Source of the DNA: Candidatus Parcubacteria bacterium
GTDB lineage: Bacteria > Patescibacteriota > Minisyncoccia > UBA6257 > HR35
DNA length: 64,000 nt
Direction: 5' to 3'
Assembly (NCBI GenBank): GCA_026004495.1
Contig: BPJG01000001.1
Location: 144,582 to 208,581 of the forward strand
Shown in pieces: positions 8,544 through 43,646 of this stretch; position 1 is the stretch's first letter, and the number at the start of each line of letters is the position of its first letter. The translations under genes were made by a program, and so were the position numbers. Under the pieces are notes generated by a model. That model was given only the letters and a program-made list of their open reading frames with translations. It had not been told where the DNA came from and did not search any database.

Positions 8544-8618
8544 GGGGGAGTAGCTCCTAATTGGTAGAGCGGCGGTCTCCAAAACCGCAGGTTGTAGGTT
8601 CGAATCCTACCTCCCCCG
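8544..8618 (+). tRNA. tRNA-Trp (anticodon CCA)
   Basis: Cloverleaf by eye: acceptor GGGGGAG/CTCCCCC, anticodon loop CTCCAAA, T-loop TTCGAAT. No encoded CCA. Confidence 0.8.
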
Positions 8619-8679
8619 AAAATTGATATTTAAAAAAATATTTTTTTAATTTTTAATATTTAAAATTAGGTCAAATTAA

Positions 8680-8763
8680 GTCCGGGTGGCGAAATTGGAA
8701 GACGCGCTACCTTGAGGGGGTAGTGGGAGTAATCCCGTGTGGGTTCAAATCCCACCCCGGACA
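8680..8763 (+). tRNA. tRNA-Leu (anticodon GAG), long variable arm
   Basis: Acceptor GTCCGGG/CCCGGAC, anticodon stem CTACC/GGTAG with loop TTGAGGG, long variable arm, T-loop TTCAAAT. Confidence 0.75.
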
Positions 8764-8803
8764 AATAAATATTAATAGAAAAATTATATAAAAAATAAAT
8801 ATA

Positions 8804-8876
8804 AGCCCCCAACAGGACTCGAACCTGTAACCTTGTGGTCCGAAGCCACACGCTCTTCCAATTGAGCTATGGGGGC
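8804..8876 (-). tRNA. tRNA-Arg (anticodon TCG)
   Basis: The reverse complement folds as acceptor GCCCCCA/TGGGGGC, anticodon loop CTTCGGA, T-loop TTCGAGT. Confidence 0.7.
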
Positions 8877-8918
8877 TATTACTATTACTAGCTTTACTAA
8901 AATTTATTAAATCTAAAT

Positions 8919-8991
8919 TGGGCGGGAGAGGATTCGAACCTCTGGCCTTCTCGACGTCAACGAGACGCTCTACCAACTGAGCTACCCGCCC
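8919..8991 (-). tRNA. tRNA-Val (anticodon GAC)
   Basis: The reverse complement folds as acceptor GGGCGGG/CCCGCCC, anticodon loop TTGACGT, T-loop TTCGAAT. Confidence 0.75.
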
Positions 8992-9960: not shown

Positions 9961-12513
9961 ATGGAAAAATTAATTGAGTTTTCTCAGAAAAGTGAAACTG
10001 AAATTTTAACCGAATTAAAAACTTCTCAAGAAGGATTAAATGAAAAAGAAGCTGAAAAAAGATTAAGAAAATTCGGTTTAAATAAAATTTCTTCTTTTAA
10101 GATTGATCTTTTAGAAATTATTAAAAGAAATTGTCTAAATTTTTTAAATATTTTTCTTTTTATTGCTGGTTTACTTTCCTTTTTAATTAAGGGTCCTGAA
10201 GTTGAAACCAATTTAATTTTTTTCTTTTTAATTCTTTCAATTTTAATTGCTATTTTTCAAGATTATCGAGTTAATAAATTAAGTGAAAAACTTTTGTCTT
10301 ATTTTAAGAATTATGCTTGGGTTAAAAGAGACGGTAAATGGCAGGAAATTGAAGCTGAATATTTAGTTCCTGGTGATTATGTTAAAGTTCAAGCTGGTTA
10401 TTTAATTCCAGCTGATATAAGAATTTTAAAAACAGAAGATGCTTTAGTTGATGAATCAATAATTACTGGTGAAAGTGAGCCAATATATAAAAACGCGGAA
10501 CTATCAGAACTTATACAGAACTTACAGAAAAATTCAGCTAGTTCAGCGTCAGTTCTGCGTAGTTCTGTTATTCCAGAAAATATTTCTCTTTTGGGTACAA
10601 CATTAATAAAAGGAGAAATTGAAGGAATTGTTTTGGTTACCGGTAAAGAAAGTTATTTTGGTTCAATTGCTAAAAAAACAATTGAAATAAGTAAAGAAAC
10701 TGCCTATGAAAAAATGATGGATCAATTCGCTAAAAATATTTCTTTCCTTGCTATTTTAATTGCTTTAATAATAATTTCTATTAATCTTTTAAAGCCAGGT
10801 TATCCAAATTTTCAAGAATTAATAATTTTTTCAATTGTTTTAGCTGTTGCCATTGTACCAGAATTTTTGCCAACAATGACTGTTTTAGCTTTAAGTTTGG
10901 CTGGAAATAGATTAGCTAAAAAAGGGTTAGTTATTAAAAGACTTTCATCAATCGAAGACTTAGGAGCAATTCAAATTTTATGTACTGATAAAACAGGGAC
11001 AATTACAACGAATGAATTAAGGTTAGAAAGAATTATAACACAAACTGGAAACGAACAACAAACAGACAAAGCTGAGATAATCAATATGAATACTATGACC
11101 GAACATTCCGCATTAAGTCCAGATAAGTCCATGTTTATAAAATATTTTTTAGCAGACTATTATTTCACTCAAGAAGCTACTCCTTATGACAAAGCAATTT
11201 TAGAAAAAATAAAAGAAATGTCTGATTACTCAAATTGGGAATTAATTGAAGATACCGATTTTGATCCAATCAAAAGAATAAGAAAAATTATTGTTAAAGT
11301 AAATGATGGAATTATCGAAATTGTTAAAGGTTCACCTGAAGAAATTGCTAAAATAACTCAAGATGATAATTGTTTAGAGATTTTTAAACGAGAAGATAAA
11401 AATGGTTTAAGAACATTAGCTTTAGCTGTAAATAATAAATTTTTAGGCATTGCTTCTTTTGTTGATCCTTTGAAAGAAAGCGCTTTTTCAGCTATTAATT
11501 TAGCTAAAAGATTAAATTTAGAAATAAAGATTTTAACAGGTGATTCATTAAATGTTGCCCGAGCTGTTGGTTTAAAACTTGGTTTAATTGAAGAAAATGA
11601 AAGGGTTGTCTTAGGAGAAGAAATAAGAAATTTAACTGGTGAAGAATTGAAAAAAATTGTCAAAGAAACAAAGATTTTTGCTCGCGTTTTACCTGAAGAT
11701 AAACTAAAAATTATCGAGGTTTTACAAAAAGAAAAATTTGTTGGTTTTTTAGGTGAAGGAATTAACGATGCTCCAGCTTTAAAAATAGTAAATGTTGCTT
11801 TAGCTGTTGATACTGCTACTGATATTGTTAAACAAGAAGCAGATATTATTTTAAAAGAAAAAGATTTGAAAACAATTATCGATGGTATTTATCAAGGCCG
11901 AAAAGTTTTAGAAAATATTGGTAAATATATTAAGCATACAATGAGTGATAATTTTGGCAATTTAACTTCAGTTGCTATTTTAACTTCAATTTTGCCTTTC
12001 GTACCAATGACACCACTTCAAGTTTTATTAACTAATTTTTTAACTGATATTCCTTTGATTGCTTTTGCTAATGATAATGTTGAAATTAAAGAAATTAAAA
12101 AGCCGGTAAAAATGTCAAGCTATCATTTAATTTTACTTCTTTTAGGTTTAGGTATTATTGCTGGAACTATTAATATTCTTGGTTATTTAATTGTCAAAAA
12201 TCAGTCAATTGAAATTATTCAAACTTATATCTTCTTTTTAACAACAATTACTGGTTTAATTGTTTCATTTCTTATCAGAACCAAAAATTGGTTCTTTTTA
12301 TCAAAACCAAGTAAATCTTTTATAATCGCTTCAATTATAGGGCTTATTTCAACTATAGTTTTTATATTTTTGCCGTCATTCAATAAAATTTTTGGATTTT
12401 CATCTTTAAATCAAAAATTAATTTTTACTTCATTAGTTTTAATCTTAGCCTTTATTTTAGGAACTGAAATTGTCAAAAAAGTCTTTTATAAAAAATTTCC
12501 AGATGTAATTTAA
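9961..12513 (+). CDS. cation-transporting P-type ATPase (P2/P3-like)
   Basis: TGES, DKTGTIT and GDGINDAP-like (GEGINDAPAL) motifs, PEFLP in TM4, about 10 TM segments. Confidence 0.85.
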   Translation: MEKLIEFSQKSETEILTELKTSQEGLNEKEAEKRLRKFGLNKISSFKIDLLEIIKRNCLNFLNIFLFIAGLLSFLIKGPEVETNLIFFFLILSILIAIFQDYRVNKLSEKLLSYFKNYAWVKRDGKWQEIEAEYLVPGDYVKVQAGYLIPADIRILKTEDALVDESIITGESEPIYKNAELSELIQNLQKNSASSASVLRSSVIPENISLLGTTLIKGEIEGIVLVTGKESYFGSIAKKTIEISKETAYEKMMDQFAKNISFLAILIALIIISINLLKPGYPNFQELIIFSIVLAVAIVPEFLPTMTVLALSLAGNRLAKKGLVIKRLSSIEDLGAIQILCTDKTGTITTNELRLERIITQTGNEQQTDKAEIINMNTMTEHSALSPDKSMFIKYFLADYYFTQEATPYDKAILEKIKEMSDYSNWELIEDTDFDPIKRIRKIIVKVNDGIIEIVKGSPEEIAKITQDDNCLEIFKREDKNGLRTLALAVNNKFLGIASFVDPLKESAFSAINLAKRLNLEIKILTGDSLNVARAVGLKLGLIEENERVVLGEEIRNLTGEELKKIVKETKIFARVLPEDKLKIIEVLQKEKFVGFLGEGINDAPALKIVNVALAVDTATDIVKQEADIILKEKDLKTIIDGIYQGRKVLENIGKYIKHTMSDNFGNLTSVAILTSILPFVPMTPLQVLLTNFLTDIPLIAFANDNVEIKEIKKPVKMSSYHLILLLLGLGIIAGTINILGYLIVKNQSIEIIQTYIFFLTTITGLIVSFLIRTKNWFFLSKPSKSFIIASIIGLISTIVFIFLPSFNKIFGFSSLNQKLIFTSLVLILAFILGTEIVKKVFYKKFPDVI

Positions 12514-15750: not shown

Positions 15751-16671
15751 TTATTCAATTTCTTCGACTACTATTTCATCTCCTAAAATATAGGCAATTA
15801 TAGCTTTGTTATCTTTATTGATGGTAAAATCAACTTCATCATAAGGCCCATATATTTTATCATTTATTTGAACATAGTATTTATCATCTTTTGTATAAGA
15901 CCATCCATATTTTGAGCTATCAGGAAAAAATATTTCACAATAAAAAATATCACAAGGATGGACATTATCATAAGGCCCATATATTTTATCATTTAGTTGA
16001 ACATACCATTTATCATCTTTTTTATACCTCAATCCATATTTTGAACTATCAGGAAAGAATATTTCACAATAAAAAATATCACAAGGATGGACATTATCAT
16101 AAGGCCCATATATTTTATCATTTAGTTGAAGATAGTATTTATTATCTTTTTCATAAGGTACATATACATATTTACCAGTTTCTTTTTCTAAGCCCACTCC
16201 TGTAATAGACTCTCTATCTAACAATAATTTATATTTTCTTACCCTTCCTTCTTCTTTCTTAGTTTCTTCTTTCTTAGTTTCCAATTTTATATCTTTACCT
16301 TTTATAGGAAATACTTTATTATCTTTTTTCCTTTTAAATGTTAATAATCTAAGTGTATCCTTATTTATTAATCTTCCTCTAAATTCTCCTGTATTATTAT
16401 TATTTTCATCATATTCTTTAAGGATAACAGTTTTAGTCTTAAGATTAATCTCTCCTTCTAATTTTAACCATTTTCCTACTTTATCATATTTATATCTTCA
16501 TTCTATTTTATTACTATTATCTTTTTGAGATAATTCAAGAGTAATAGGATAATTAGATATTTTTAGATTATAAGTATTAGTAATTTTATTAGTAGTTATT
16601 GTTTGAGCATTAGAAAATAAGGGAGAAAGAATAAGAGAGATAAGGATTAAAGAGATTATTAGTTTTTTCAT
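15751..16671 (-). pseudogene. lipoprotein/secreted repeat protein interrupted by in-frame TGA (signal-peptide part 16501..16671; repeat part 15751..16497)
   Basis: ATG at 16671 encodes MKKLIISLILISLILSPLFSNAQT... and stops at TGA 16500..16498. The same frame continues without any start codon into the listed ORF 15751..16284. That ORF contains three tandem ~39-aa repeats (DKxYVQLNDKIYGPYDNVHPCDIFYCEIFFPDSSKYG). Confidence 0.45.
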
Positions 16672-33109: not shown

Positions 33110-34924
33110 ATGAAAATAAAAGAAATAACAAAAAAAGTAATAATTATAATTTTGTTTTTAGCTATTATTTCATCAAATTTTATATTTAAAAAAAACTTAC
33201 TGGCAAATTTAATTTATTTTTATCCCCAAAATTGTTTAGGTAGTTTTATTAATCCTGAAAAAGCCCAAGGAAAACCTGAAGTTGATAGTCCAGATTTAAT
33301 AAATGAATCAAATTCTGCTGTTTATTTAGGTGGTTTTAAAGAAATTTATTGTGGAAATTTTCAAGGACCAGAGGCTAAAGGAGACATTAAAAAAATAACA
33401 TTACATTTTAATTGGATTATCACTAAAGAAAAAAATGGGGATTCGATAATTAAACCAACCTCAACAGAATCAAATATTTTAGAAAAAATAATTCCTTCAA
33501 AAACAATAGAGTTTGAATTTAATACTTCTCCAACTCCAACACCAGAAACAACCTCAACAATTGAATCAACATCAAGCCCAGAAATAAATTTTTTATTCAA
33601 CAAAGATCAACTTCTGCGTAGTTCTGCATTATCTTCTGTTAGTTCTGCGTCAGTTCTGCGTAGTTCTGCGTTTGATCTGCGTGAGTCTGCTTTAATAAAA
33701 TTTGTCTTTGCTCAAGAAACAACAACATCGCTTGAAACAACACCAGCTACAGAATCAAACTCAGAATCAACCACTATTAATACCCAAACCGAAACAGCAA
33801 CCCAAACTATAAATGAAACTCAACAATCTTTACCAGAAAATCAATCAGCAGAGCTATCAACAACTTCTACTTCAACAAATAATCAAATAGAAAATATCAC
33901 TTCTTCTACGACTACTCAAACATTAACCACCGCTTCACCAGCTGAAAATCAAAATGAAACTAATACAACGACAACAATTTTAGAAACAACCACAACACCA
34001 ATTTTAATACCTCCTAAAACTTTATTTGAAATTCACTATACCTTAGATGGTCAAAATTGGAATTATTTAGGTAATATAAATGAAAATAATTGGCAAAATA
34101 TTTCTTTTGAAATTCCAGTAAATAATTGGCTTGATATATCAAAAATTCAAATTAAGATAAATTCTTTACCAGAAACTGATTATTATCTTTATTTAGAATC
34201 AATGTGGTTTGAGATTGAATATGAAGAAAAAAACGAAGAAGATGAAGTTTTTGATATTTTAGGGAATTATAAGACAAATATCATTGTTTCTAAAGAGAGT
34301 TTCGAGCTTGATGAAATTCCTTACTTTGAATTTAAGATTTCTAAAAACAATAATGAAAATGAAATTGACATTTCTGAAATTAAATCAATTAATATAAAAG
34401 TTTTTAATTCCAATAAGGAGCTAATTTTCCAAACCAATAAGCTGGATTTTGATTATGATTCCAAAAATTTTTCTTTTAAATTAGATAATTTTCTAAAATT
34501 ATATCCAAATAGTTATAGATTAAAAATTTATTTAAATAAATATTTAGCCGGAGAATATGATTTCAATTGGGGAGGAAATATTGTTAAAGAAGAAAAAATT
34601 GACTCAGATAAAGAATTAATATTTATTGATTTTAATAATAAAAATCAAATATGGAATTTAACAAAAAGTGATATAAATAGTTTTGAAAAGATTTGGGAAG
34701 GCAAAGAATTTCCAAATTATAAAATTATTGATAGCTATCTAATTTTAAATTTTTCAGAAACAATTTTAGGCTATGACTTATTAAGTAAAACATCTTTTAC
34801 TTATACCTTTGAAAAATCAACTTCAACAATAATTAATATCAACAATAAAAAATATTCAATTTCACCAAATTTTGATTTTTTAGAAATTAATGAATCTCCA
34901 GAAAATGAAAATCAAGTTTTCTAA
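33110..34924 (+). CDS. secreted S/T-rich surface protein (604 aa)
   Basis: Signal peptide, a long T/S/N-rich linker that is probably glycosylated, and a C-terminal globular region. Overlaps the start of the giant gene by 35 nt. Confidence 0.55.
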   Translation: MKIKEITKKVIIIILFLAIISSNFIFKKNLLANLIYFYPQNCLGSFINPEKAQGKPEVDSPDLINESNSAVYLGGFKEIYCGNFQGPEAKGDIKKITLHFNWIITKEKNGDSIIKPTSTESNILEKIIPSKTIEFEFNTSPTPTPETTSTIESTSSPEINFLFNKDQLLRSSALSSVSSASVLRSSAFDLRESALIKFVFAQETTTSLETTPATESNSESTTINTQTETATQTINETQQSLPENQSAELSTTSTSTNNQIENITSSTTTQTLTTASPAENQNETNTTTTILETTTTPILIPPKTLFEIHYTLDGQNWNYLGNINENNWQNISFEIPVNNWLDISKIQIKINSLPETDYYLYLESMWFEIEYEEKNEEDEVFDILGNYKTNIIVSKESFELDEIPYFEFKISKNNNENEIDISEIKSINIKVFNSNKELIFQTNKLDFDYDSKNFSFKLDNFLKLYPNSYRLKIYLNKYLAGEYDFNWGGNIVKEEKIDSDKELIFIDFNNKNQIWNLTKSDINSFEKIWEGKEFPNYKIIDSYLILNFSETILGYDLLSKTSFTYTFEKSTSTIININNKKYSISPNFDFLEINESPENENQVF

Positions 34925-37900
34925 AAAAGCCTTTGTAAAGGTAAGCAACTTAATTTTAACTCTAATTCTATTAATTTCGCTAAATTTTTCTTATTTTATT
35001 TTAAGTAGTTTTAAATTATCAAAACAAAAATTTAAAGATAAACTTGTTAAAGAAGCGCAGGCAGTTTCTTTTTTCCATCCCACTAATGGCATCTTAGTTA
35101 CTGGTTCAGAAACAGCTTTAAGTAATTCTAATGTTGGCTCATGGCGAGGTTTATTAGGTAATGACTCAAATTATTGGCAAGTAGCCAGAGTTAATCCTGG
35201 AGGTTTAAATCTTTTAATTTATTTTGATGGAGTTGAACTTTATGGAGCTAATAAAATGATTATTACAATTGAAGATTCAAATATTATTACTGGTGATGCT
35301 TATATTCATCAAATTTGTGATTGGGTTGATTCAACTGGAGTTGATAATCCTGCTGATACTGATTGTACTGGTGGTGGTTGGCGAACATTAAATCCAAGAA
35401 AAACAACCTATACTAATATTGCTGATACTATTAGATCTTATGAAATATATAATGGTTATTTTTCAACCAGAGCAGCCTCTCCAGGAACGGTAATTAATAC
35501 TCCTTTATCTAATTTTATTGAACCAACAAATAAAAGAGTCTTAATAAGAGTGTATTCAACTGTCAATTCAACAACTAATTTAAGAATTGATTGGGCGCAA
35601 ATTGAAGTCGCTATTGATCCCTTTTATCAAAATGCTGGTATAACCTTAACTTCAGCTGGAGCAACAACTAACTTTATCTCTGACCTAATTGGTGCTCCTT
35701 ATCCTGGACCCAATAGTTCTGATAATGTTAAATTAACAATTCCTATGCCAGCAGCTAATCAACCAATTGATTTCTATTTCTCTTTTAAAAATGTCAAAAC
35801 TTATACTGGAATGAATACTATTTTAGTTGTTCCTGAAATTTGTGTTTCTAATACAGCTCTAACTTTTGATGTTTATTTGTGGAATTTTACTACTAATTCT
35901 TGGACTAAAAGACCAGGAACAGCTATTACTGGAACTGCTTGTACTACTGATACTGAATATGGTTTTGCTTTTAATCAATATACTATATCTGGTTTTAATT
36001 TAGATGATTATATTTCTAATGGTGAAATTAGAGTTAGGTTTTTAACCAATAATCCAGCTACTGTTTATAATATCCAACTTGATAGAATTTATATCTTTTT
36101 AGGTTCAGTTAATACTAATTCCTCAGCCTGTGAAATATCTTGGGGAACAGGAACAGCTTCAGATTGTGTTAATACCAGAGATATGAACGAAGGTTTAACT
36201 GCTAATCCAACAACTCTTACTTGGCAAACAGGAGCAGTAATTGAATATCCTGCTGGCTATCATCCCTTAGATAACGATGATGATATTACTAATGGTGAAT
36301 ATGCTTTTTCTTCTAATTTAGATTTTCCAGTAACTTTATCTTCTAATATGTCAGTAACTGCTATTCATTATGCTGGCAAATATAGATCAAATGCAACTTC
36401 AATTACCGTTAAACCATCAATTAGAGTTTATGGAGGTTTACCTGGTATTTATAGGAAAGCAGCAGGTTCTGGTTGGCGTGATACTCCCGGATCTGGTACT
36501 AATGCAGCTACTACTTATTCTTATTTTGATACCTTTAGAGTTCCTGAACTTCAAGTTGATGCACCAGATCATATTGATACAGTTAATAATCGAATGAATA
36601 TGAGATTAAGAACTTCAGCTTCAACTAATACTGCTGGTGGTGTAACTAGAGATTGGGATTTTGCAATGATGAGTATTAGATGGGTGGAAGAACCAAATAG
36701 AGTAACAATTACTAAAAATTTCCACCCCACTAACGGTATTTTAGTTACTGGTTCAGAAACAGCTTTAAGTAATTCTAATGTTGGCTCATGGCGAGGTTTA
36801 TTAGGTAATGACTCAAATTATTGGCAAGTAGCCAGAGTTAATCCTGGAGGTTTAAATCTTTTAATTTATTTTGATGGAGTTGAACTTTATGGAGCTAATA
36901 AAATGATTATTACAATTGAAGATTCAAATATTATTACTGGTGATGCTTATATTCATCAAATTTGTGATTGGGTTGATTCAACTGGAGTTGATAATCCTGC
37001 TGATACTGATTGTACTGGTGGTGGTTGGCGAACATTAAATCCAAGAAAAACAACCTATACTAATATTGCTGATACTATTAGATCTTATGAAATATATAAT
37101 GGTTATTTTTCAACCAGAGCAGCCTCTCCAGGAACGGTAATTAATACTCCTTTATCTAATTTTATTGAACCAACAAATAAAAGAGTCTTAATAAGAGTGT
37201 ATTCAACTGTCAATTCAACAACTAATTTAAGAATTGATTGGGCGCAAATTGAAGTCGCTATTGATCCCTTTTATCAAAATGCTGGTATAACCTTAACTTC
37301 AGCTGGAGCAACAACTAACTTTATCTCTGACCTAATTGGTGCTCCTTATCCTGGACCCAATAGTTCTGATAATGTTAAATTAACAATTCCTATGCCAGCA
37401 GCTAATCAACCAATTGATTTCTATTTCTCTTTTAAAAATGTCAAAACTTATACTGGAATGAATACTATTTTAGTTGTTCCTGAAATTTGTGTTTCTAATA
37501 CAGCTCTAACTTTTGATGTTTATTTGTGGAATTTTACTACTAATTCTTGGACTAAAAGACCAGGAACAGCTATTACTGGAACTGCTTGTACTACTGATAC
37601 TGAATATGGTTTTGCTTTTAATCAATATACTATATCTGGTTTTAATTTAGATGATTATATTTCTAATGGTGAAATTAGAGTTAGGTTTTTAACCAATAAT
37701 CCAGCTACTGTTTATAATATCCAACTTGATAGAATTTATATCTTTTTAGGTTCAGTTAATACTAATTCCTCAGCCTGTGAAATATCTTGGGGAACAGGAA
37801 CAGCTTCAGATTGTGTTAATACCAGAGATATGAACGAAGGTTTAACTGCTAATCCAACAACTCTTACTTGGCAAACAGGAGCAGTAATTGAATATCCTGC

Positions 37901-38828
37901 TGGCTATCATCCCTTAGATAACGATGATGATATTACTAATGGTGAATATGCTTTTTCTTCTAATTTAGATTTTCCAGTAACTTTATCTTCTAATATGTCA
38001 GTAACTGCTATTCATTATGCTGGCAAATATAGATCAAATGCAACTTCAATTACCGTTAAACCATCAATTAGAGTTTATGGAGGTTTACCTGGTATTTATA
38101 GGAAAGCAGCAGGTTCTGGTTGGCGTGATACTCCCGGATCTGATACTAATGCAGCTACTACTTATTCTTATTTTGATACCTTTAGAGTTCCTGAACTTCA
38201 AGTTGATGCACCAGATCATATTGATACAGTTAATAATCGAATGAATATGAGATTAAGAACTTCAGCTTCAACTAATACTGCTGGTGGTGTAACTAGAGAT
38301 TGGGATTTTGCAATGATGAGTATTAGATGGGTGGAAAGACCATTTGCACCACCAACAATTACTTGCTCTTTTTCAGCAACTTCAACTTCTTTTTCAAGTT
38401 TATCTCCTTCAGCTGTTTCTACTTCTTCACCTGATATAACAATTACCGTTACCTCTTCTGCTGGTTTTATAATTTCTGTTAATAATGCTGGAGATGGAAC
38501 TAACCCAGGTCTTTATAAATCAACTGCGCCAACATATTTAATTCCTTCACCCGATTCTTCATTTTCTGCAACTGCAACTTTATTTGCTGGCACAGATGGG
38601 TATGGTATTCAAGCAACAACGACTAATTCAAATATAAATATTAATGTAAGGTATAATGTTAGTGGATATACTGTTGGAGGTTTGACAACAACAACCATTA
38701 CTTTGGCAAGCTCTTCAGCTTCTGTTTCTTCGGCTCAAATTACTATTAAACACAAAGCATCTATTTCAGCCTTAGCACCAATAGGAAATTATCAGGATAC
38801 AATAACATATAGTTGCACAAGCCCGTAG
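34890..38828 (+). CDS. giant surface protein (1312 aa) with internal 549-aa tandem duplication and C-terminal SCPU/CsuA-B-like beta-sandwich domain
   Basis: N-terminal TM/signal. Two near-identical 549-aa units. The C-terminal ~160 aa resemble the stand-alone protein at 39426..40085 and pilin-like SCPU domains (see findings). Confidence 0.7.
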   Translation: MNLQKMKIKFSKKAFVKVSNLILTLILLISLNFSYFILSSFKLSKQKFKDKLVKEAQAVSFFHPTNGILVTGSETALSNSNVGSWRGLLGNDSNYWQVARVNPGGLNLLIYFDGVELYGANKMIITIEDSNIITGDAYIHQICDWVDSTGVDNPADTDCTGGGWRTLNPRKTTYTNIADTIRSYEIYNGYFSTRAASPGTVINTPLSNFIEPTNKRVLIRVYSTVNSTTNLRIDWAQIEVAIDPFYQNAGITLTSAGATTNFISDLIGAPYPGPNSSDNVKLTIPMPAANQPIDFYFSFKNVKTYTGMNTILVVPEICVSNTALTFDVYLWNFTTNSWTKRPGTAITGTACTTDTEYGFAFNQYTISGFNLDDYISNGEIRVRFLTNNPATVYNIQLDRIYIFLGSVNTNSSACEISWGTGTASDCVNTRDMNEGLTANPTTLTWQTGAVIEYPAGYHPLDNDDDITNGEYAFSSNLDFPVTLSSNMSVTAIHYAGKYRSNATSITVKPSIRVYGGLPGIYRKAAGSGWRDTPGSGTNAATTYSYFDTFRVPELQVDAPDHIDTVNNRMNMRLRTSASTNTAGGVTRDWDFAMMSIRWVEEPNRVTITKNFHPTNGILVTGSETALSNSNVGSWRGLLGNDSNYWQVARVNPGGLNLLIYFDGVELYGANKMIITIEDSNIITGDAYIHQICDWVDSTGVDNPADTDCTGGGWRTLNPRKTTYTNIADTIRSYEIYNGYFSTRAASPGTVINTPLSNFIEPTNKRVLIRVYSTVNSTTNLRIDWAQIEVAIDPFYQNAGITLTSAGATTNFISDLIGAPYPGPNSSDNVKLTIPMPAANQPIDFYFSFKNVKTYTGMNTILVVPEICVSNTALTFDVYLWNFTTNSWTKRPGTAITGTACTTDTEYGFAFNQYTISGFNLDDYISNGEIRVRFLTNNPATVYNIQLDRIYIFLGSVNTNSSACEISWGTGTASDCVNTRDMNEGLTANPTTLTWQTGAVIEYPAGYHPLDNDDDITNGEYAFSSNLDFPVTLSSNMSVTAIHYAGKYRSNATSITVKPSIRVYGGLPGIYRKAAGSGWRDTPGSDTNAATTYSYFDTFRVPELQVDAPDHIDTVNNRMNMRLRTSASTNTAGGVTRDWDFAMMSIRWVERPFAPPTITCSFSATSTSFSSLSPSAVSTSSPDITITVTSSAGFIISVNNAGDGTNPGLYKSTAPTYLIPSPDSSFSATATLFAGTDGYGIQATTTNSNININVRYNVSGYTVGGLTTTTITLASSSASVSSAQITIKHKASISALAPIGNYQDTITYSCTSP
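35075..38368. repeat. direct tandem duplication, 2 x 1647 bp, near-identical, inside the giant gene
   Basis: The landmark GTTACTGGTTCAGAAACAGC occurs at 35097 and 36744, an offset of 1647. The translated copies differ at only a few residues, e.g. SGTNAAT vs SDTNAAT. Confidence 0.9.
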
Positions 38829-38880
38829 TTAGTAGCTAGTATCTAGTAGCTAGTAAGTAGTAGCTAAAATCTAGTAGTTA
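38826..38880. repeat. TAG/CTAG-rich repeat R1 (TAGTAGCTAGTATCTAGTAGCTAGTAAGTAGTAGCT)
   Basis: Lies directly after the stop of the giant gene. Related copies are at 39255..39333 (inverted) and 40083..40130 (direct). Confidence 0.7.
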
Positions 38881-39425: not shown

Positions 39426-40085
39426 TTGGTCGAAATTAATAAAAAAAATAAAATGAAAAAAGTAAATACATTTCAAAGCTTGATCATTTTGATAAGCATA
39501 TTTTTAGCTATTTATTTTATTTCTGAGTTGTTTATTATACCATCGTCTATTTTAAAGGCTCAAACTAATGTTACTGTTTCAGCAACTGTGACAACAAGTG
39601 TTACTTGTAATTTTTCAACAACAACTACTAATTTTGGTACTATCGATACAAGTGCCGTCTATACTTCTTTGCCTAATGTAACAGCAACTGTTTCTTGTAA
39701 TCCAGCTGCAGGATGTAAGGTAGAAATTAACGATCAAGGATCTGGATCTCAGCCAGGTTTATGGAATTCAACAGCTTCTCATTTAATTCCTTCACCAGAT
39801 TCTGCATTCTCAGCAACTGCAAATTTAGTGGCTGGAACAGAAGGTTATGGAATTCAAGCAGCAACAACTTCAGCTGGATCTGGCGCAACTCTTTCTTTAA
39901 ATTCGAGATATATCCAAACTGGAAATACCGTTGGAGGATTAACAACAACAACTATTCAATTAGCCTCTTCGACATCACCAATATCAAACAGAGAAATTGT
40001 TGTTACTCATAAAGCAGCTGTTTCAAGTTTAACTCCAGCAGGTAATTATCAAGATACAATAACTTATAGTTGTTCATCGAATTAG
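39426..40085 (+). CDS. secreted SCPU/CsuA-B-like beta-sandwich protein (pilin-like), paralog of the giant protein C-terminus
   Basis: Signal peptide. NVTVSATVTTSVTCNF...NFGTID (cf. SCPU TFQVSATVxASCxV...FGTYD) and C-terminal AGNYQDTITYSCSS (cf. AGSYSDTVTVTVTY). Aligns with giant-protein residues ~1150-1312 (GL..STA..LIPSPDS.FSATA.L.AGT.GYGIQA.TT...GGLTTTTI.LASS...KA..S.L.P.GNYQDTITYSC). Confidence 0.55.
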   Translation: MVEINKKNKMKKVNTFQSLIILISIFLAIYFISELFIIPSSILKAQTNVTVSATVTTSVTCNFSTTTTNFGTIDTSAVYTSLPNVTATVSCNPAAGCKVEINDQGSGSQPGLWNSTASHLIPSPDSAFSATANLVAGTEGYGIQAATTSAGSGATLSLNSRYIQTGNTVGGLTTTTIQLASSTSPISNREIVVTHKAAVSSLTPAGNYQDTITYSCSSN

Positions 40086-40130
40086 TAGCTAATAGTTAGA
40101 AGCTAGTATCTAGAAGCTAGTATCTAGTAA
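40083..40130. repeat. TAG-rich repeat R3 (TAGTAGCTAATAGTTAGAAGCTAGTATCTAGAAGCTAGTATCTAGTAA)
   Basis: Same orientation and motif family as R1. Lies immediately after the stop of the SCPU-like gene. Confidence 0.65.
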
Positions 40131-40160
40131 TTAAAAACAATTTTTATAAAATTTAAAACA

Positions 40161-41075
40161 ATGAAAAATTATAAAAATAATTCAATAATTTACTTTCTTT
40201 TAGTTTCTATTTTCTATTTACTAGCTACTAATTTATTGGCTACTAATTTTGTTTTTGCCTTAACTGTTGGGCCAGCGAAATTAGAATTTATAACCGATCC
40301 AGGCCAAACTTTAGAATTTAGTTTATTTGTGAGAAACGATAGCGATTACGATAATAAATATCAAATTATTGTTGAAGGATTTACTGAAGAAGGAGGCGAA
40401 AGAAAATATATTGAAAATCCACCAGAAGTAACTTGGGTTGAAACACCAAAAGATATTTTTCTCAAAGCCAAAGAAGATAAAAATGTTCCAATAAAAATTA
40501 ATGTTCCTAAAGATGCTCCACCAGGAGGTCATTTTTTAGTTTTATGGGTAAGCACAAAGCCTGAAGGAGGTCAAGTAGCAATTGTCTCAAGAGTTGGCTC
40601 TTTAGTTTTTATTAATGTTTCAGGAAATGCAATTTATAAAGCTTATATCAGTGAATTAAAAGCTCCAAAATTTGCTTGGAATTTTCCAGTAAAATTTTCT
40701 TATGTAATTAAAAATGAAGGTAACACTTATATCACACCAAAAGGAGATATTGAAATTAAAAATATTTTTGGCAGATTAATTGCTGATTTACCAATAAATC
40801 CAAGAGAGCTTCAAGTTTTACCTAATACTTCAAAAAATTTTGAGCAAGAATGGAAAGCAAATTTTGCTCTTGGTATTTATAAAGCTATTTTTAATTTAGA
40901 ATATGCTAATTCAAGAGATTCTTTAACTCATTGGCTTATTTTTATTGATCTCAAAGCCCTGATAATAATTTTACTTATTCTTATTTTTGCAATCTTCTTC
41001 TTACCAAGATTGATTAAAAAATATAATGAATGGATAATTAAAAAGTATACGCAAAATAAAAATATAAATGAATGA
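40161..41075 (+). CDS. secreted beta-sandwich (Ig/CARDB/DUF916-like) protein with C-terminal TM anchor
   Basis: Signal peptide, about 250 aa predicted all-beta (TVGPAKLEFITDPGQTLEFSLFVRNDS...), C-terminal hydrophobic helix plus a basic tail. The family assignment is tentative. Confidence 0.45.
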   Translation: MKNYKNNSIIYFLLVSIFYLLATNLLATNFVFALTVGPAKLEFITDPGQTLEFSLFVRNDSDYDNKYQIIVEGFTEEGGERKYIENPPEVTWVETPKDIFLKAKEDKNVPIKINVPKDAPPGGHFLVLWVSTKPEGGQVAIVSRVGSLVFINVSGNAIYKAYISELKAPKFAWNFPVKFSYVIKNEGNTYITPKGDIEIKNIFGRLIADLPINPRELQVLPNTSKNFEQEWKANFALGIYKAIFNLEYANSRDSLTHWLIFIDLKALIIILLILIFAIFFLPRLIKKYNEWIIKKYTQNKNINE

Positions 41076-42124
41076 ATTTAAGAATAATTTCAATAATTTT
41101 TTTAATATTTGTTTCTATATTTATATTATTTTATTCTTTTACTTATCTTAAATCTGCTTCGATAAATATTAAAGCTTTTGTGCCTGGTATTTGTGGAAAT
41201 AATTTTAAAGAACCAGGAGAAGAATGTGATGGCCCTGATTTAGGAGGTCAAAGTTGTGTTTCTTTAGGTTATTCAGGCGGAACCTTATCTTGTAATTCTA
41301 ATTGTACTTTTAATACTTCTCAATGTACCATTTCTCCGCCAAGTAGTGGAGGAGGTGGGGGAGGCAGTGGATCGTACATTCCCTCTTATGGAACAGTTAT
41401 TCTTTCAGGAAGGGCTCAACCGAATAGTGATGTTACTTTAATGTCTGATGGTCAAATTAAAGCTGTTATCAAGGTTGATGCTGATGGAAAATTTAGATTT
41501 ACTATTTCAAATTTAACTCCAGGAAATTACATATTTACCTTATATGCTGAAGATATTGAAGGAAGAAGAACAAGTTTGCATTCAATTCCAACAGTAGTTA
41601 CTGCAGGACTGACAATTGAAATAGGCAGTATTTTTCTTTCACCAACAATTGACATTGATAAAACTCAAGTTAGGCGAGGAGAGATCTTAAGAATTTTTGG
41701 CCAAACAGCTCCTGAATCTAATGTTTTAATTGTTGTTTCTTCCGAAAAAGAGTTATATTTTCAAACTCAAGCAGAAAAAGATGGAAGTTATTTATATGCT
41801 TTCAATACTATTGACTTAGATTATGGCCAACATTTAACAAAATCAAGATCAATTTTAGCTAATCAATTAGTTAGTCCTTTTTCAAGATCTTTAAACTTTC
41901 AAGTCTCGACAAGTTCAATAGCTAAAAAACCAACAAAATGTCCATTAAAAGGAGATTTAAATAATGATTGTCGAGTAAATTTAATTGATTTTTCAATTGC
42001 CGCTTATTGGTATAAAAGAAAATTAAGTCCAAGTTTTACTAAAATTGAAAAAGAAAATTTAAATGGAGATGGAAAGGTCGATTTAGTCGATTTTAGTATT
42101 ATGGCTTATTGGTGGACGGGGTAA
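41072..42124 (+). CDS. dockerin-domain protein with N-terminal anchor, Cys-rich module, Gly linker and Ig-like domains
   Basis: The C-terminus has two canonical dockerin Ca-binding repeats: GDLNNDCRVNLIDFSIAAYWYKRK and NLNGDGKVDLVDFSIMAYWW. The N-terminal region carries 8 Cys (CGNNFKEPGEECDG...SCVS...SCNSNCTF..SQC) followed by GGGGGGSG. Confidence 0.7.
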   Translation: MNLRIISIIFLIFVSIFILFYSFTYLKSASINIKAFVPGICGNNFKEPGEECDGPDLGGQSCVSLGYSGGTLSCNSNCTFNTSQCTISPPSSGGGGGGSGSYIPSYGTVILSGRAQPNSDVTLMSDGQIKAVIKVDADGKFRFTISNLTPGNYIFTLYAEDIEGRRTSLHSIPTVVTAGLTIEIGSIFLSPTIDIDKTQVRRGEILRIFGQTAPESNVLIVVSSEKELYFQTQAEKDGSYLYAFNTIDLDYGQHLTKSRSILANQLVSPFSRSLNFQVSTSSIAKKPTKCPLKGDLNNDCRVNLIDFSIAAYWYKRKLSPSFTKIEKENLNGDGKVDLVDFSIMAYWWTG

Positions 42125-42127
42125 TAG

Positions 42128-42224
42128 CCACACGAATGCCAACGAATCAAATAAGCACACGAATGGCAACGAATTATATAATATTTGTGTGCAATTCGTG
42201 TTAATACACGAATGGCGATGAATT
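42128..42224. repeat. repeat family 2, left copy: tandem CACACGAATGGCAACGAAT units plus an internal inverted copy
   Basis: CACACGAATGCCAACGAAT, CACACGAATGGCAACGAAT, and GTGTGCAATTCGTGTTAATACACGAATGGCGATGAAT. Confidence 0.7.
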
Positions 42225-42713: not shown

Positions 42714-42766
42714 AATTCGTGTGCCATTCGTGTAATATTATTATATATTCGTACCATTCGTGTAGT
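42714..42766. repeat. repeat family 2, right copy, inverted (ATTCGTGTGCCATTCGTGTA ... ATTCGTACCATTCGTGTAG)
   Basis: Reverse complement of the CACGAATGG(C/T)ACACGAAT units found upstream of the gene. Confidence 0.7.
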
Positions 42767-42773
42767 TATAAAA

Positions 42774-43646
42774 ATGTCTAGGATTTATATACAAAGTGAT
42801 AAAAAAATGAATACTGATAAAATTATTATACCTATCTATCTTGACACTGAGGGAGAATCAATTAATGCTTTTGAAGTTAAAATTAAAATCTCTGACAATT
42901 TAATTTTTAGAGATTATTTAGAGAAAGATTCAATTATTAGTTATTGGATTGAAAGACCCCATGTAGTAGAGCGGAGCTCACTACCTGGCAAACCCAATGT
43001 AGTAGAAAAAAGTTCACCACAAGGTTCTACTACTGAGAACTTGTCTCGTAGTGAACCACAAGGTTCTACTACCGAGATAAATTTTTCTGGAATTACTCCG
43101 GGAGGTTATATTGGTAAAAAAGCTTTATTAGTAAATTTAATTTTTGAAGCTAAACAAAGTGGTTCAGCTTTCATTGAAATCTTGCCTTCGTCCAATGTTT
43201 TGTTAAATGATAGCTTAGGAACAAAAGCAAAATTAATAACTGAGAAATATAGTTTTATTTTAAACCGAACTCAGGAGAAGAAAATAATAATTCAAGATAA
43301 TTACCCACCCGAGCCATTTAAGGTTTATCTTCAAAAAGATAAAGAAATTTTTAATAATAAATATTATCTTGTTTTTTATGCCCAAGACAAACAATCAGGA
43401 ATATCTTATTATGAAGTTAAAGAAGGTGATTATGATTTTGAAAAAGCTTCATCACCATATCTTTTAAAAGATCAATCTTTAAGAAGTTATGTCTATATTA
43501 AAGCAGTTGATCGAGCAGGAAATGAACGAATTGAGATTTTTAAACCTCGAAAATTATTTTTGTTAGAGGAAATTTTATCCTTGATTTTTTTTATTGTTAT
43601 AATATTCTTAATATTTCTAATTTTCAATAAAAAATTTAAGAAATAA
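42774..43646 (+). CDS. membrane-anchored cohesin-like domain protein (second copy) with in-frame repeat insertion
   Basis: The N-terminal beta domain resembles the 30238..31677 protein (IIIPIYLDTEGESINAFEVKIKISDNLIF...EINFSGITPGGYIGKKALLVNLIFEAK...AFIEIL). There is a C-terminal Ig-like region plus a TM anchor. An inserted segment RPHVVERSSLPGKPNVVEKSSPQGSTTENLSRSEPQGSTTE is encoded by short direct and inverted repeats. Confidence 0.5.
   Translation: MSRIYIQSDKKMNTDKIIIPIYLDTEGESINAFEVKIKISDNLIFRDYLEKDSIISYWIERPHVVERSSLPGKPNVVEKSSPQGSTTENLSRSEPQGSTTEINFSGITPGGYIGKKALLVNLIFEAKQSGSAFIEILPSSNVLLNDSLGTKAKLITEKYSFILNRTQEKKIIIQDNYPPEPFKVYLQKDKEIFNNKYYLVFYAQDKQSGISYYEVKEGDYDFEKASSPYLLKDQSLRSYVYIKAVDRAGNERIEIFKPRKLFLLEEILSLIFFIVIIFLIFLIFNKKFKK

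Follow-up and report, generated by a model that had tools for sequence, protein, structure and literature searches.

How does a short palindromic repeat come to lie in frame within a conserved enzyme gene, and what kind of element is it? The question is raised by a P-type ATPase gene in a 64,000-nucleotide (nt) stretch of the genome of a Candidatus Parcubacteria bacterium (KatS3mg094; GenBank assembly GCA_026004495.1, contig BPJG01000001.1, positions 144,582 to 208,581), the whole of which is referred to here as the window. An earlier note on this DNA had described the repeat and had likened it to the palindromic elements of Rickettsia. The reading preferred here, with a probability of roughly 0.6, is that the ATPase insert is a derivative of a family of nuclease-associated palindromic elements, that it is non-autonomous, lacks an open reading frame (ORF) of its own and resembles the miniature inverted-repeat type of transposable element (MITE), and that it is translated as a disordered loop. 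The analysis covered the 64-kb window together with fragments of the genomes of relatives, and the DNA of orthologous ATPase loci was compared; loci fetched from other genomes are identified by number (L001 and so on).

The in-frame array and its orthologues

The insert as a whole runs from 10493 to 10567 (75 nt, 25 codons) and stands directly after the TGES motif of the actuator domain. The palindromic short-repeat element that the earlier note had placed in frame in the ATPase was found with the sequence and coordinates described; the palindrome is real, and its makeup and extent could be refined to this span and to a repeat unit of 10-11 nt (ACGCAGAACT / AGTTCTGCGT) with a double-unit period of 21 nt, or 7 codons. 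In the array, three to four units of ACGCAGAACT type are followed by the central AAA and then by three reverse-complement AGTTCTGCGT units. CAGAACT at 10505 and 10516 is inverted relative to AGTTCTG at 10551 and 10561, as had been proposed, and a repeat finder gave arms of 25 nt each (10505-10529 and 10533-10557) that are 72% complementary and separated by a gap of 3 nt. The peptide reported to follow TGES, LSELIQNLQKNSASSASVLRSSV, was correctly translated; the two arms encode unrelated peptides. The strand of the element folds into a better hairpin than its shuffles both as DNA and as RNA (-26.4 kcal/mol and z = -5.2 for the latter).

The 21-mer CGTCAGTTCTGCGTAGTTCTG, which had been said to be shared with an unrelated ORF (33110-34924), has exact copies at 10547-10567 and at 33648-33668; no other site in the window matches it even when up to three mismatches are allowed, the chance expectation being 0 in 100 dinucleotide shuffles. 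Identity between the two sites reaches 27/28 bases (10540-10567 against 33641-33668), and at each the shared host frame yields SVLRSS. Clusters of at least three GTTCNG/CNGAAC cores are likewise limited to these two sites in the 64 kb, compared with a shuffled mean of 0.02, in a window with a G+C content of 26%. In both arrays the host frame is free of stops and stops are present in the other frames. An AlphaFold model based on the orthologue alignment gave a predicted local distance difference test score (pLDDT) below 50 at residues 181-202 and 363-386 of the ATPase, within its two inserts (Table 1) and flanked by confident domains, which is expected of unstructured surface loops. A search of Rfam 15 at the gathering score found no match at the ATPase element, four tRNAs being the sole matches in the window.

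Orthologues of the ATPase are ~60-80% identical and vary in length from 806 to 1104 amino acids (aa). Their alignment showed that all of this variation is confined to blocks of low complexity, which occupy at least six sites and are missing from the 806-aa forms. At the insert site the sequence of the 806-aa forms is TGESEPVIKTTQSS-ENIALMG and that of outgroups is no more than a short loop, and the window ATPase has 25 additional residues encoded by the repeat. ATPases without the repeat are also without the extra peptide, so that the ancestral loop raised in the earlier note as an alternative fails. The closest relative (81% identical) has another type of repeat unit at the post-TGES site, which in KatS3mg095 and GCA_017880035 is occupied by CAGAACT-type arrays that differ in their number of units. 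For ORF 33110-34924, both the closest orthologue and that of KatS3mg095 lack the array that precedes a conserved FVFAQE motif, and remoter orthologues have arrays of other unit types at the position before FVFAQE. Because orthologues of both genes exist without them, sequence comparison identifies the ATPase and ORF 33110 arrays as lineage-specific insertions.

Gain or loss of such arrays is also seen between close relatives. L006 and L007 are 95.7% identical over ~20 kb, and the ATPase gene of L006 contains three additional blocks that L007 lacks, their lengths (231, 42 and 90 nt) each divisible by three. A further block of 286 nt, again missing in L007, is intergenic and lies just upstream of the ATPase gene. 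All four L006-specific blocks consist of repeat units of this sort.

A dispersed family of arrays

The motif was found to be repeated elsewhere, as the earlier note had supposed: in addition to ORF 33110-34924 it is present in the ATPase, SHMT, RtcB, ribonucleotide reductase, CTP synthase and phosphoglucomutase genes of three related genomes. In KatS3mg095 the CAGAACT-type unit occurs in the SHMT and RtcB genes, in the latter within an intein region, and in KatS3mg096 it occurs in those for ribonucleotide reductase, phosphoglucomutase and CTP synthase. It is clear that the array family is dispersed among genes and genomes. Most of the array copies seen were intragenic and in frame.

The family is modular. 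Every variable ATPase block in relatives has the form [unit]n, short centre, [reverse-complement unit]n, with units of 10-11 nt that have a CG core and the general form ACGC-N-GA-(A)-C/T-T. The unit type ACGCAGAACT / AGTTCTGCGT is that of the window, KatS3mg095 and GCA_017880035, and further types were ACGCGGACT or ACGCAGACT / AGTCTGCGT, AATACGGATT / AAATCCGT, ACACGAAT / ATTCGTG and GCGAAT / ATTCGC. Cores are conserved among arrays and linkers are variable, and [..GCGT]n always comes after [ACGC..]n and never before it. Copy number varies, giving element lengths of 42 to ~330 nt in relatives compared with 75 nt here, and blocks may be nested, as in site 1 of L006 (A4-B9-B'6-A'2). In coding arrays one core follows the next at 10 or 11 nt, and the distance over two units is most often 21 nt, equivalent to 7 codons; in intergenic arrays the distance over two units is 24-25 nt. 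Related units also build long intergenic palindromes, for example one of 334 nt in KatS3mg096 with a fold z of -8. Another intergenic palindrome of KatS3mg096 (L077, 632-810; GACGTGCGATGTC... / ...GACGTCGCACATCC) is not made of 10-11-nt units.

A BLAST self-comparison of the window for palindromes returned almost entirely AT-rich low-complexity sequence, and scans for CpG density and with Tandem Repeats Finder (TRF) filtered for G+C content were informative instead. Among the matches listed in a scan of contigs for a three-unit pattern, the relevant ones were four KatS3mg096 and two Patescibacteria blocks, and most were unrelated tandem repeats from other phyla; KatS3mg094 itself was not among the matches listed. 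Some other kinds of short repeat were rejected from the anatomy of the arrays. DNA-uptake sequences would be more frequent than two clusters in 64 kb, arrays of partition sites or iterons are implausible inside many housekeeping ORFs, and the targets of diversity-generating retroelements would show an A-biased variation that is absent here.

True inteins (Intein_splicing, with LAGLIDADG in ribonucleotide reductase) were identified in RtcB and class II ribonucleotide reductase (L001, 13274-16189; L006, 16274-19195; L011, 1-3858). The genes for these two proteins hold both inteins and repeat arrays, and in L001 the array lies inside the RtcB intein itself.

Arrays around GxxExxY nuclease genes and neighbouring features

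The CpG-density scan of the window detected a third locus, in which the gene for a GxxExxY protein is flanked by inverted CACGAAT arrays (Table 1). Profile scores for this ORF were 87.7 bits with PF13366 (cut-off 22) and 85.7 bits with TIGR04256 (cut-off 35), which together with its catalytic E...PD...ExK residues assign it, on sequence criteria, to the GxxExxY members of the PD-(D/E)XK superfamily. E39, D79, E89 and K91 are invariant in 52 homologues. The structural model has a pLDDT of 92.5 and its fold matches in the PDB are weak and all restriction-endonuclease-like (R2 endonuclease, Bax1, AF1548 and I-Bth0305I); a Foldseek search of the PDB with the model gave nothing at E <= 0.001. PADLOC gave no match for the protein and PHROGs a weak 'endonuclease' match alone, and a marginal sequence match in the PDB to Cas1 (E = 0.007) was disregarded. 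Its syntenic orthologues in KatS3mg095 and GCA_049970635 are bracketed by the same arrays. The window copy is ~19 aa shorter at its C-terminus than the KatS3mg095 orthologue, with a stop (TTT TAA) where L128 reads ...IVNFGYKNYF... in DNA that otherwise matches, and from this it may be decaying and is possibly inactive.

A connection between arrays with and without the nuclease ORF is seen in L005. Here a GxxExxY ORF lies in frame inside the RtcB gene, flanked by (ACGCAGACT)n and (AGTCTGCGT)n, at a site which in other genomes is empty and reads AHNIVKIE-EYEGKK-LIVHRKGAT. Aligned with the ORF-less insert in the ATPase gene of L005, the left array of this element agrees at 32/37 positions and scores 49, against a shuffle maximum of 27. 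An array in the RtcB gene of L001 was considered as a counterpart at the L005 nuclease insertion site and was rejected, as it lies within the intein. Further GxxExxY copies were sought in the fetched loci with tblastn, which found just the window copy and the RtcB-embedded copy of L005.

A wider survey of metagenomes yielded 80 loci encoding GxxExxY relatives, 79 of which had sufficient flank, and 57 shifted controls were scored alongside them. An exact 7-mer present at least twice upstream, with its reverse complement at least twice downstream, was found at 29 of the 79 loci and in no shifted control, and these bracketing 7-mers were all of the CGCAGAT / CGCGGAT / GCGGACT kind. When relaxed cores were used (at least two left-type upstream and at least two right-type downstream) the figures were 44/79 loci and 0/57 controls, and the reverse order was never found. 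Unit type tracked the relatedness of the nucleases, the nearest neighbour being of the same type in 14/17 cases. It is apparent from these loci that arrays of this kind form the inverted ends of units containing a PD-(D/E)XK nuclease gene.

Housekeeping genes hold both forms in frame, those with the ORF and those without. For 27 of the 80 GxxExxY ORFs the reading frame continues without a stop for 90 codons or more on either side, and the ten embedded examples that were inspected interrupt conserved domains of RecG, GatB or LepA; in L128 and L129 a GxxExxY ORF is likewise found within the transketolase gene. No intein domain (Intein_splicing / Hint) was matched in the hosts of embedded GxxExxY ORFs, in genomes where true inteins were detected, and since no such splicing domain was found the insert presumably stays in the host protein. 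Many free-standing GxxExxY proteins end in NQRKSA- or NPRKSV-like peptides, which are translated right-arm arrays. Most contigs with GxxExxY genes are shorter than 5 kb, as expected where repeats break assemblies.

Table 1. Coordinates of the repeat arrays and their associated genes in the window
Feature	Position	Strand	Details
Host gene, Mg2+-type P-type ATPase, 850 aa	9961..12513	+	Pfam PF00690, PF00122, PF00702, PF00689; 100% identity to a protein of a Candidatus Parcubacteria metagenome-assembled genome
Left arm of in-frame palindromic array	10493..10529	+	ACGCGGAACT, atCAGAACT, tataCAGAACT, taCAGAA; ACGCAGAACT-type units, partly degenerate; encodes NAELSELIQNLQK
Palindrome centre, AAA	10530..10532	+	3 nt separating the arms
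Right arm, inverted units	10533..10567	+	TTCAGct, AGTTCAGCGT c, AGTTCTGCGT, AGTTCTG; holds the shared 21-mer; encodes NSASSASVLRSS
Second, degenerate in-frame ATPase insert	11038..11133	+	aa 360-391, after DKTGTITTNELRLERII; clear unit arrays there in relatives, nothing in 806-aa orthologues
Second host gene (KatS3mg094_174), secreted or hypothetical protein of 604 aa	33110..34924	+	No Pfam domain
Single-orientation array, ~8 AGTTCTGCGT-type units	33610..33694	+	Units every 10/11 nt, double unit 21 nt; in-frame translation LLRSSALSSVSSASVLRSSAFDLRESA; missing in closest orthologues
Left inverted-repeat array of nuclease-bearing element	42128..42223	+	CACACGAATGC-CAACGAAT ... CACACGAATGG-CAACGAAT ... 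ACACGAATGG-CGATGAAT; one internal inverted copy
GxxExxY protein gene, 121 aa	42276..42641	+	PF13366 PDDEXK_3, TIGR04256; catalytic E39, D79, E89, K91 present
Right inverted-repeat array	42715..42765	+	ATTCGTGTG-CCATTCGTGTA ... ATTCGTA-CCATTCGTGTAG; reverse complements of left units

The GxxExxY element of the window lies between a gene with a dockerin-like end (Pfam Dockerin_1, Big_6; 41072-42124) and a gene (42774-43646) whose product has an N-terminus that is cohesin-like by eye. This three-gene arrangement is kept in KatS3mg095 and GCA_049970635, and dockerin-like ends precede GxxExxY relatives in several metagenome loci (L130, L131 and L199). The element may have split a single ancestral gene.

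Features of other kinds surround these loci. Just upstream of the ATPase gene, between a pilin-like/LamG gene and folD, are four tRNA genes, two on each strand (8544-8991). In relatives the spacer between folD and the ATPase gene is as short as 24 nt (L007) and as long as 318 nt (L006), unit arrays making up the difference. At 15838-16156 a 129-nt sequence is tandemly repeated (2.5 copies with 91% matches; TRF score of 547). A 1312-aa ORF (34890-38828), probably encoding a surface protein, contains two near-identical copies of ~550 aa (FHPTNGILVTGSETALSNSNVGSWRG... repeated), the result of a large and recent duplication within it. At and beyond its end (38825-38877 and 40082-40249) are AT-rich tandem repeats of period 7/14 (GTAGCTA; TAGAAGCTAGTATC) and a 169-nt imperfect palindrome, repeats of a type distinct from the CG-core arrays. 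L006 and L007 differ in two other insertions that are missing in L007. One, of 942 nt (L006 7724-8665, against L007 9029), contains a PIN / DUF433 toxin-antitoxin-like pair. The other is a G+C-rich insertion of 69 nt in a tRNA-like gene (L006 8731-8799, against L007 9094), which lies between 15-nt direct repeats (CTGAGCTACCCGCCC) and could be either a duplication-flanked insertion or a tRNA-gene intron.

Origin of the arrays and comparison with known systems

In the mechanism proposed to account for these observations, the inward-pointing arrays of tandem 10-11-nt units at both ends of the elements, between which the full-length members have the GxxExxY gene, would be the terminal repeats or recognition sites of the nuclease. 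GxxExxY would act on the arrays or on target sites and drive copying, starting it by cleavage and repair at new sites. ORF-less arrays would behave like MITEs, or as certain repeats do relative to their transposase in the REPIN-RAYT system described below, being either mobilised in trans or descended from full elements. Arrays would nest into one another's centres, which may be preferred for re-insertion, and units would be gained and lost by slippage. Within genes the survivors would be those copies that keep the frame and are free of stops, two units being 21 nt or 7 codons, and they would be translated into hydrophilic, disordered loops at tolerant sites on the protein surface; in the window the outcome would be the 25-residue loop immediately after TGES of the actuator domain. 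A broader proposal goes further, and we advance it tentatively, putting it a little short of even odds: that GxxExxY proteins are the nucleases of an unrecognised class of selfish element which is bounded by inward arrays, invades conserved genes in frame, is retained in the protein and spawns the ORF-less arrays in housekeeping genes of the candidate phyla radiation (CPR), the ATPase insert included.

A number of observations weigh against the derivation of the ATPase insert from a nuclease-associated element. No GxxExxY gene flanked by the CAGAACT unit was seen in the loci examined, the window copy having CACGAAT, and no nuclease domain was found in the 120 ATPase orthologues listed, so that the ORF-less arrays are not simply products of local deletion. 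There are only two CAGAACT-type loci in the window. The post-TGES insert is common to three genomes and is therefore old and not a recent hop. No target-site duplication was found at the three filled/empty junctions of L006 and L007, where a few original codons have seemingly been replaced, which is atypical of classical MITEs. All four repeat indels between these two genomes are in or adjoin the ATPase gene, a striking clustering for which local expansion could account as well as transposition could. The left arm of the ATPase insert is degenerate, its linkers are unpaired, and its folding as DNA (-12.3 kcal/mol, z = -3.0) exceeds chance only modestly. In a survey of the PD-(D/E)XK superfamily the function of PF13366 (GxxExxY) is given as 'Unknown' (PMC3424549).

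There are four rival explanations. The arrays could have evolved locally in the manner of microsatellites, each site having a single origin followed by slippage and fold-back template switching, with likeness between sites due to gene conversion or convergence and no part played by a mobile element or nuclease. The variation in unit copy number at one site among close relatives would fit with this, as would the existence of single-orientation arrays (33610-33694 of the window and the 42-nt insert of L006), the lack of target-site duplications and the clustering of inserts in one gene. However, unrelated genes share the unit and even a 21-mer that is identical down to its linker, conserved cores with variable linkers are not a product of simple slippage, arrays stand at formerly empty sites between genomes that are 95.7% identical, and nuclease genes are bracketed with fixed polarity at over half of the metagenome loci and at no control; local evolution is considered unlikely on these grounds. 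A further suggestion, to which we attach a lower probability again, is that the arrays are footprints of break repair, a short templated unit having been added to both 3' ends of a double-strand break before rejoining, with a nuclease that makes the cut and is not borne on a transposon. Synthesis of this type would automatically produce [unit]n[reverse-complement unit]n and nested palindromes that age outwards, and it would agree with the invariant order of [ACGC..]n then [..GCGT]n, the nesting and the loss of codons at junctions that have no target-site duplication. It leaves the ORF between the arrays unexplained, though, variable linkers are unlike copies of a fixed template, and no polymerase, reverse transcriptase or template was identified.

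The two other explanations are both thought very improbable. If the arrays paired in the mRNA, the hairpin could be excised by RNase III and the cut mRNA rejoined by a ligase such as RtcB, and the insert would not appear in the protein. The RNA hairpin is strong (the value given above), RtcB is encoded in these genomes, and the architecture of terminal inverted repeats with a small ORF is like that of rRNA intervening sequences (PMC4990558). Against excision, the intragenic blocks are in frame and free of stops with indels in multiples of three, which the intergenic block is not, a 21-nt coding period would be needless if the insert were removed, and single-arm arrays are unable to form a stem. 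Alternatively the insert might be a selected protein feature, a flexible linker rich in Ser, Asn and Gln recruited repeatedly for the benefit of the host protein, which would be in keeping with inserts that are always in frame, hydrophilic and in surface loops. Yet the same DNA units are also intergenic, the symmetry is at the level of DNA with arms that encode unrelated peptides, presence varies among near-identical genomes, and different unit families occupy a single site. Descent of the ATPase insert from a nuclease-associated element accounts for the nuclease bracket and for new arrays at empty sites better than any of these rivals.

The array family is apparently undescribed. No account of this system was found in literature on GxxExxY, PF13366 and in-frame palindromic elements in CPR/Parcubacteria, and no paper tying GxxExxY proteins to repeats or mobility was found in full-text literature. 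If the interpretation is correct, it would explain length differences of hundreds of residues in conserved Parcubacteria proteins, exemplified by the 806-1104 aa of one ATPase, and would provide a testable function for the large and uncharacterised GxxExxY family. It would add a third route, beside inteins and repeats like those of Rickettsia, by which selfish DNA can reside within essential genes without destroying them. The arrays would also inflate or fragment gene calls, break assemblies and distort the alignments used for CPR phylogeny, and they could act as fast-evolving markers for tracking strains.

Several known systems share features with the arrays. The PARCELs are amphipathic repeats of 25 residues that account for most of each membrane-targeted ORF in which they occur, the function of these ORFs being unknown (PMC2996958). 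Like the present arrays they are coding tandem repeats with dyad symmetry in the DNA and are apparently mobile, whereas here the period is 7 residues (21 nt), the peptides are hydrophilic and the inserts are short and lie in conserved enzymes. The intervening sequences of 23S rRNA in Leptospira and Coxiella have a stem of terminal inverted repeats and an optional ORF of ~120 aa (PMC4990558); they too are small selfish elements in an essential host gene, but the host is an rRNA, removal is by RNase III, the ORF encodes an S23p four-helix bundle and the ends are not tandem-unit arrays.

Rickettsia palindromic elements (RPEs; RPE-1 to RPE-10), to which the earlier note had compared the insert, are palindromes of ~150 bp with a family consensus, of which a single genome of these Alphaproteobacteria has several families (Ogata et al. 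2000, via the review PMC10969869). They are read as selfish DNA tolerated at surface sites, and no associated gene is reported in that review. The comparison holds for behaviour, both being palindromic repeats that lie in frame in unrelated housekeeping genes and add a segment of peptide, because orthologues without the repeat do not have the peptide and the motif does recur elsewhere. It does not extend to membership of the RPEs. Organism, size and construction differ, the present elements being nested, modular arrays of 10-11-nt units with variable copy number, in Parcubacteria (KatS3mg094), with a nuclease gene in related full-length forms; the two are set apart here by their description.

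With inteins and homing endonucleases there is the likeness of a nuclease ORF in frame next to the conserved motifs of RecG, GatB, LepA, RtcB and transketolase. Unlike inteins, the inserts have no detected Hint or splicing domain, are flanked by repeat-encoded linkers and exist in ORF-less versions. In the REPIN-RAYT system, doublets of repetitive extragenic palindromic (REP) sequences are mobilised by RAYT, an IS200/IS605-like Y1 transposase whose gene is itself flanked by REP sequences. REPINs are extragenic, whereas the units described here form tandem arrays, many of them intragenic and translated. The enzyme also differs from those of both MITEs and REPIN-RAYT, the flanked ORF matching PF13366 / TIGR04256 only, that is a GxxExxY PD-(D/E)XK nuclease and not a DDE or HUH/Y1 transposase, and the lack of target-site duplications at the L006/L007 junctions is unlike a MITE. 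With MITEs the ATPase insert has in common that it is a small, multi-copy element with terminal inverted repeats and no coding capacity. As to the autonomous partner, arrays of the same type bracket GxxExxY genes and L005 has the same unit in an ORF-bearing and an ORF-less copy, although no partner with the CAGAACT unit was found and the enzyme's activity is a predicted one. What links the family to both MITEs and REPIN-RAYT is the combination of short, dispersed hairpin repeats with a small enzyme gene lying between inverted copies, and a repeat type that co-varies with the lineage of the enzyme.

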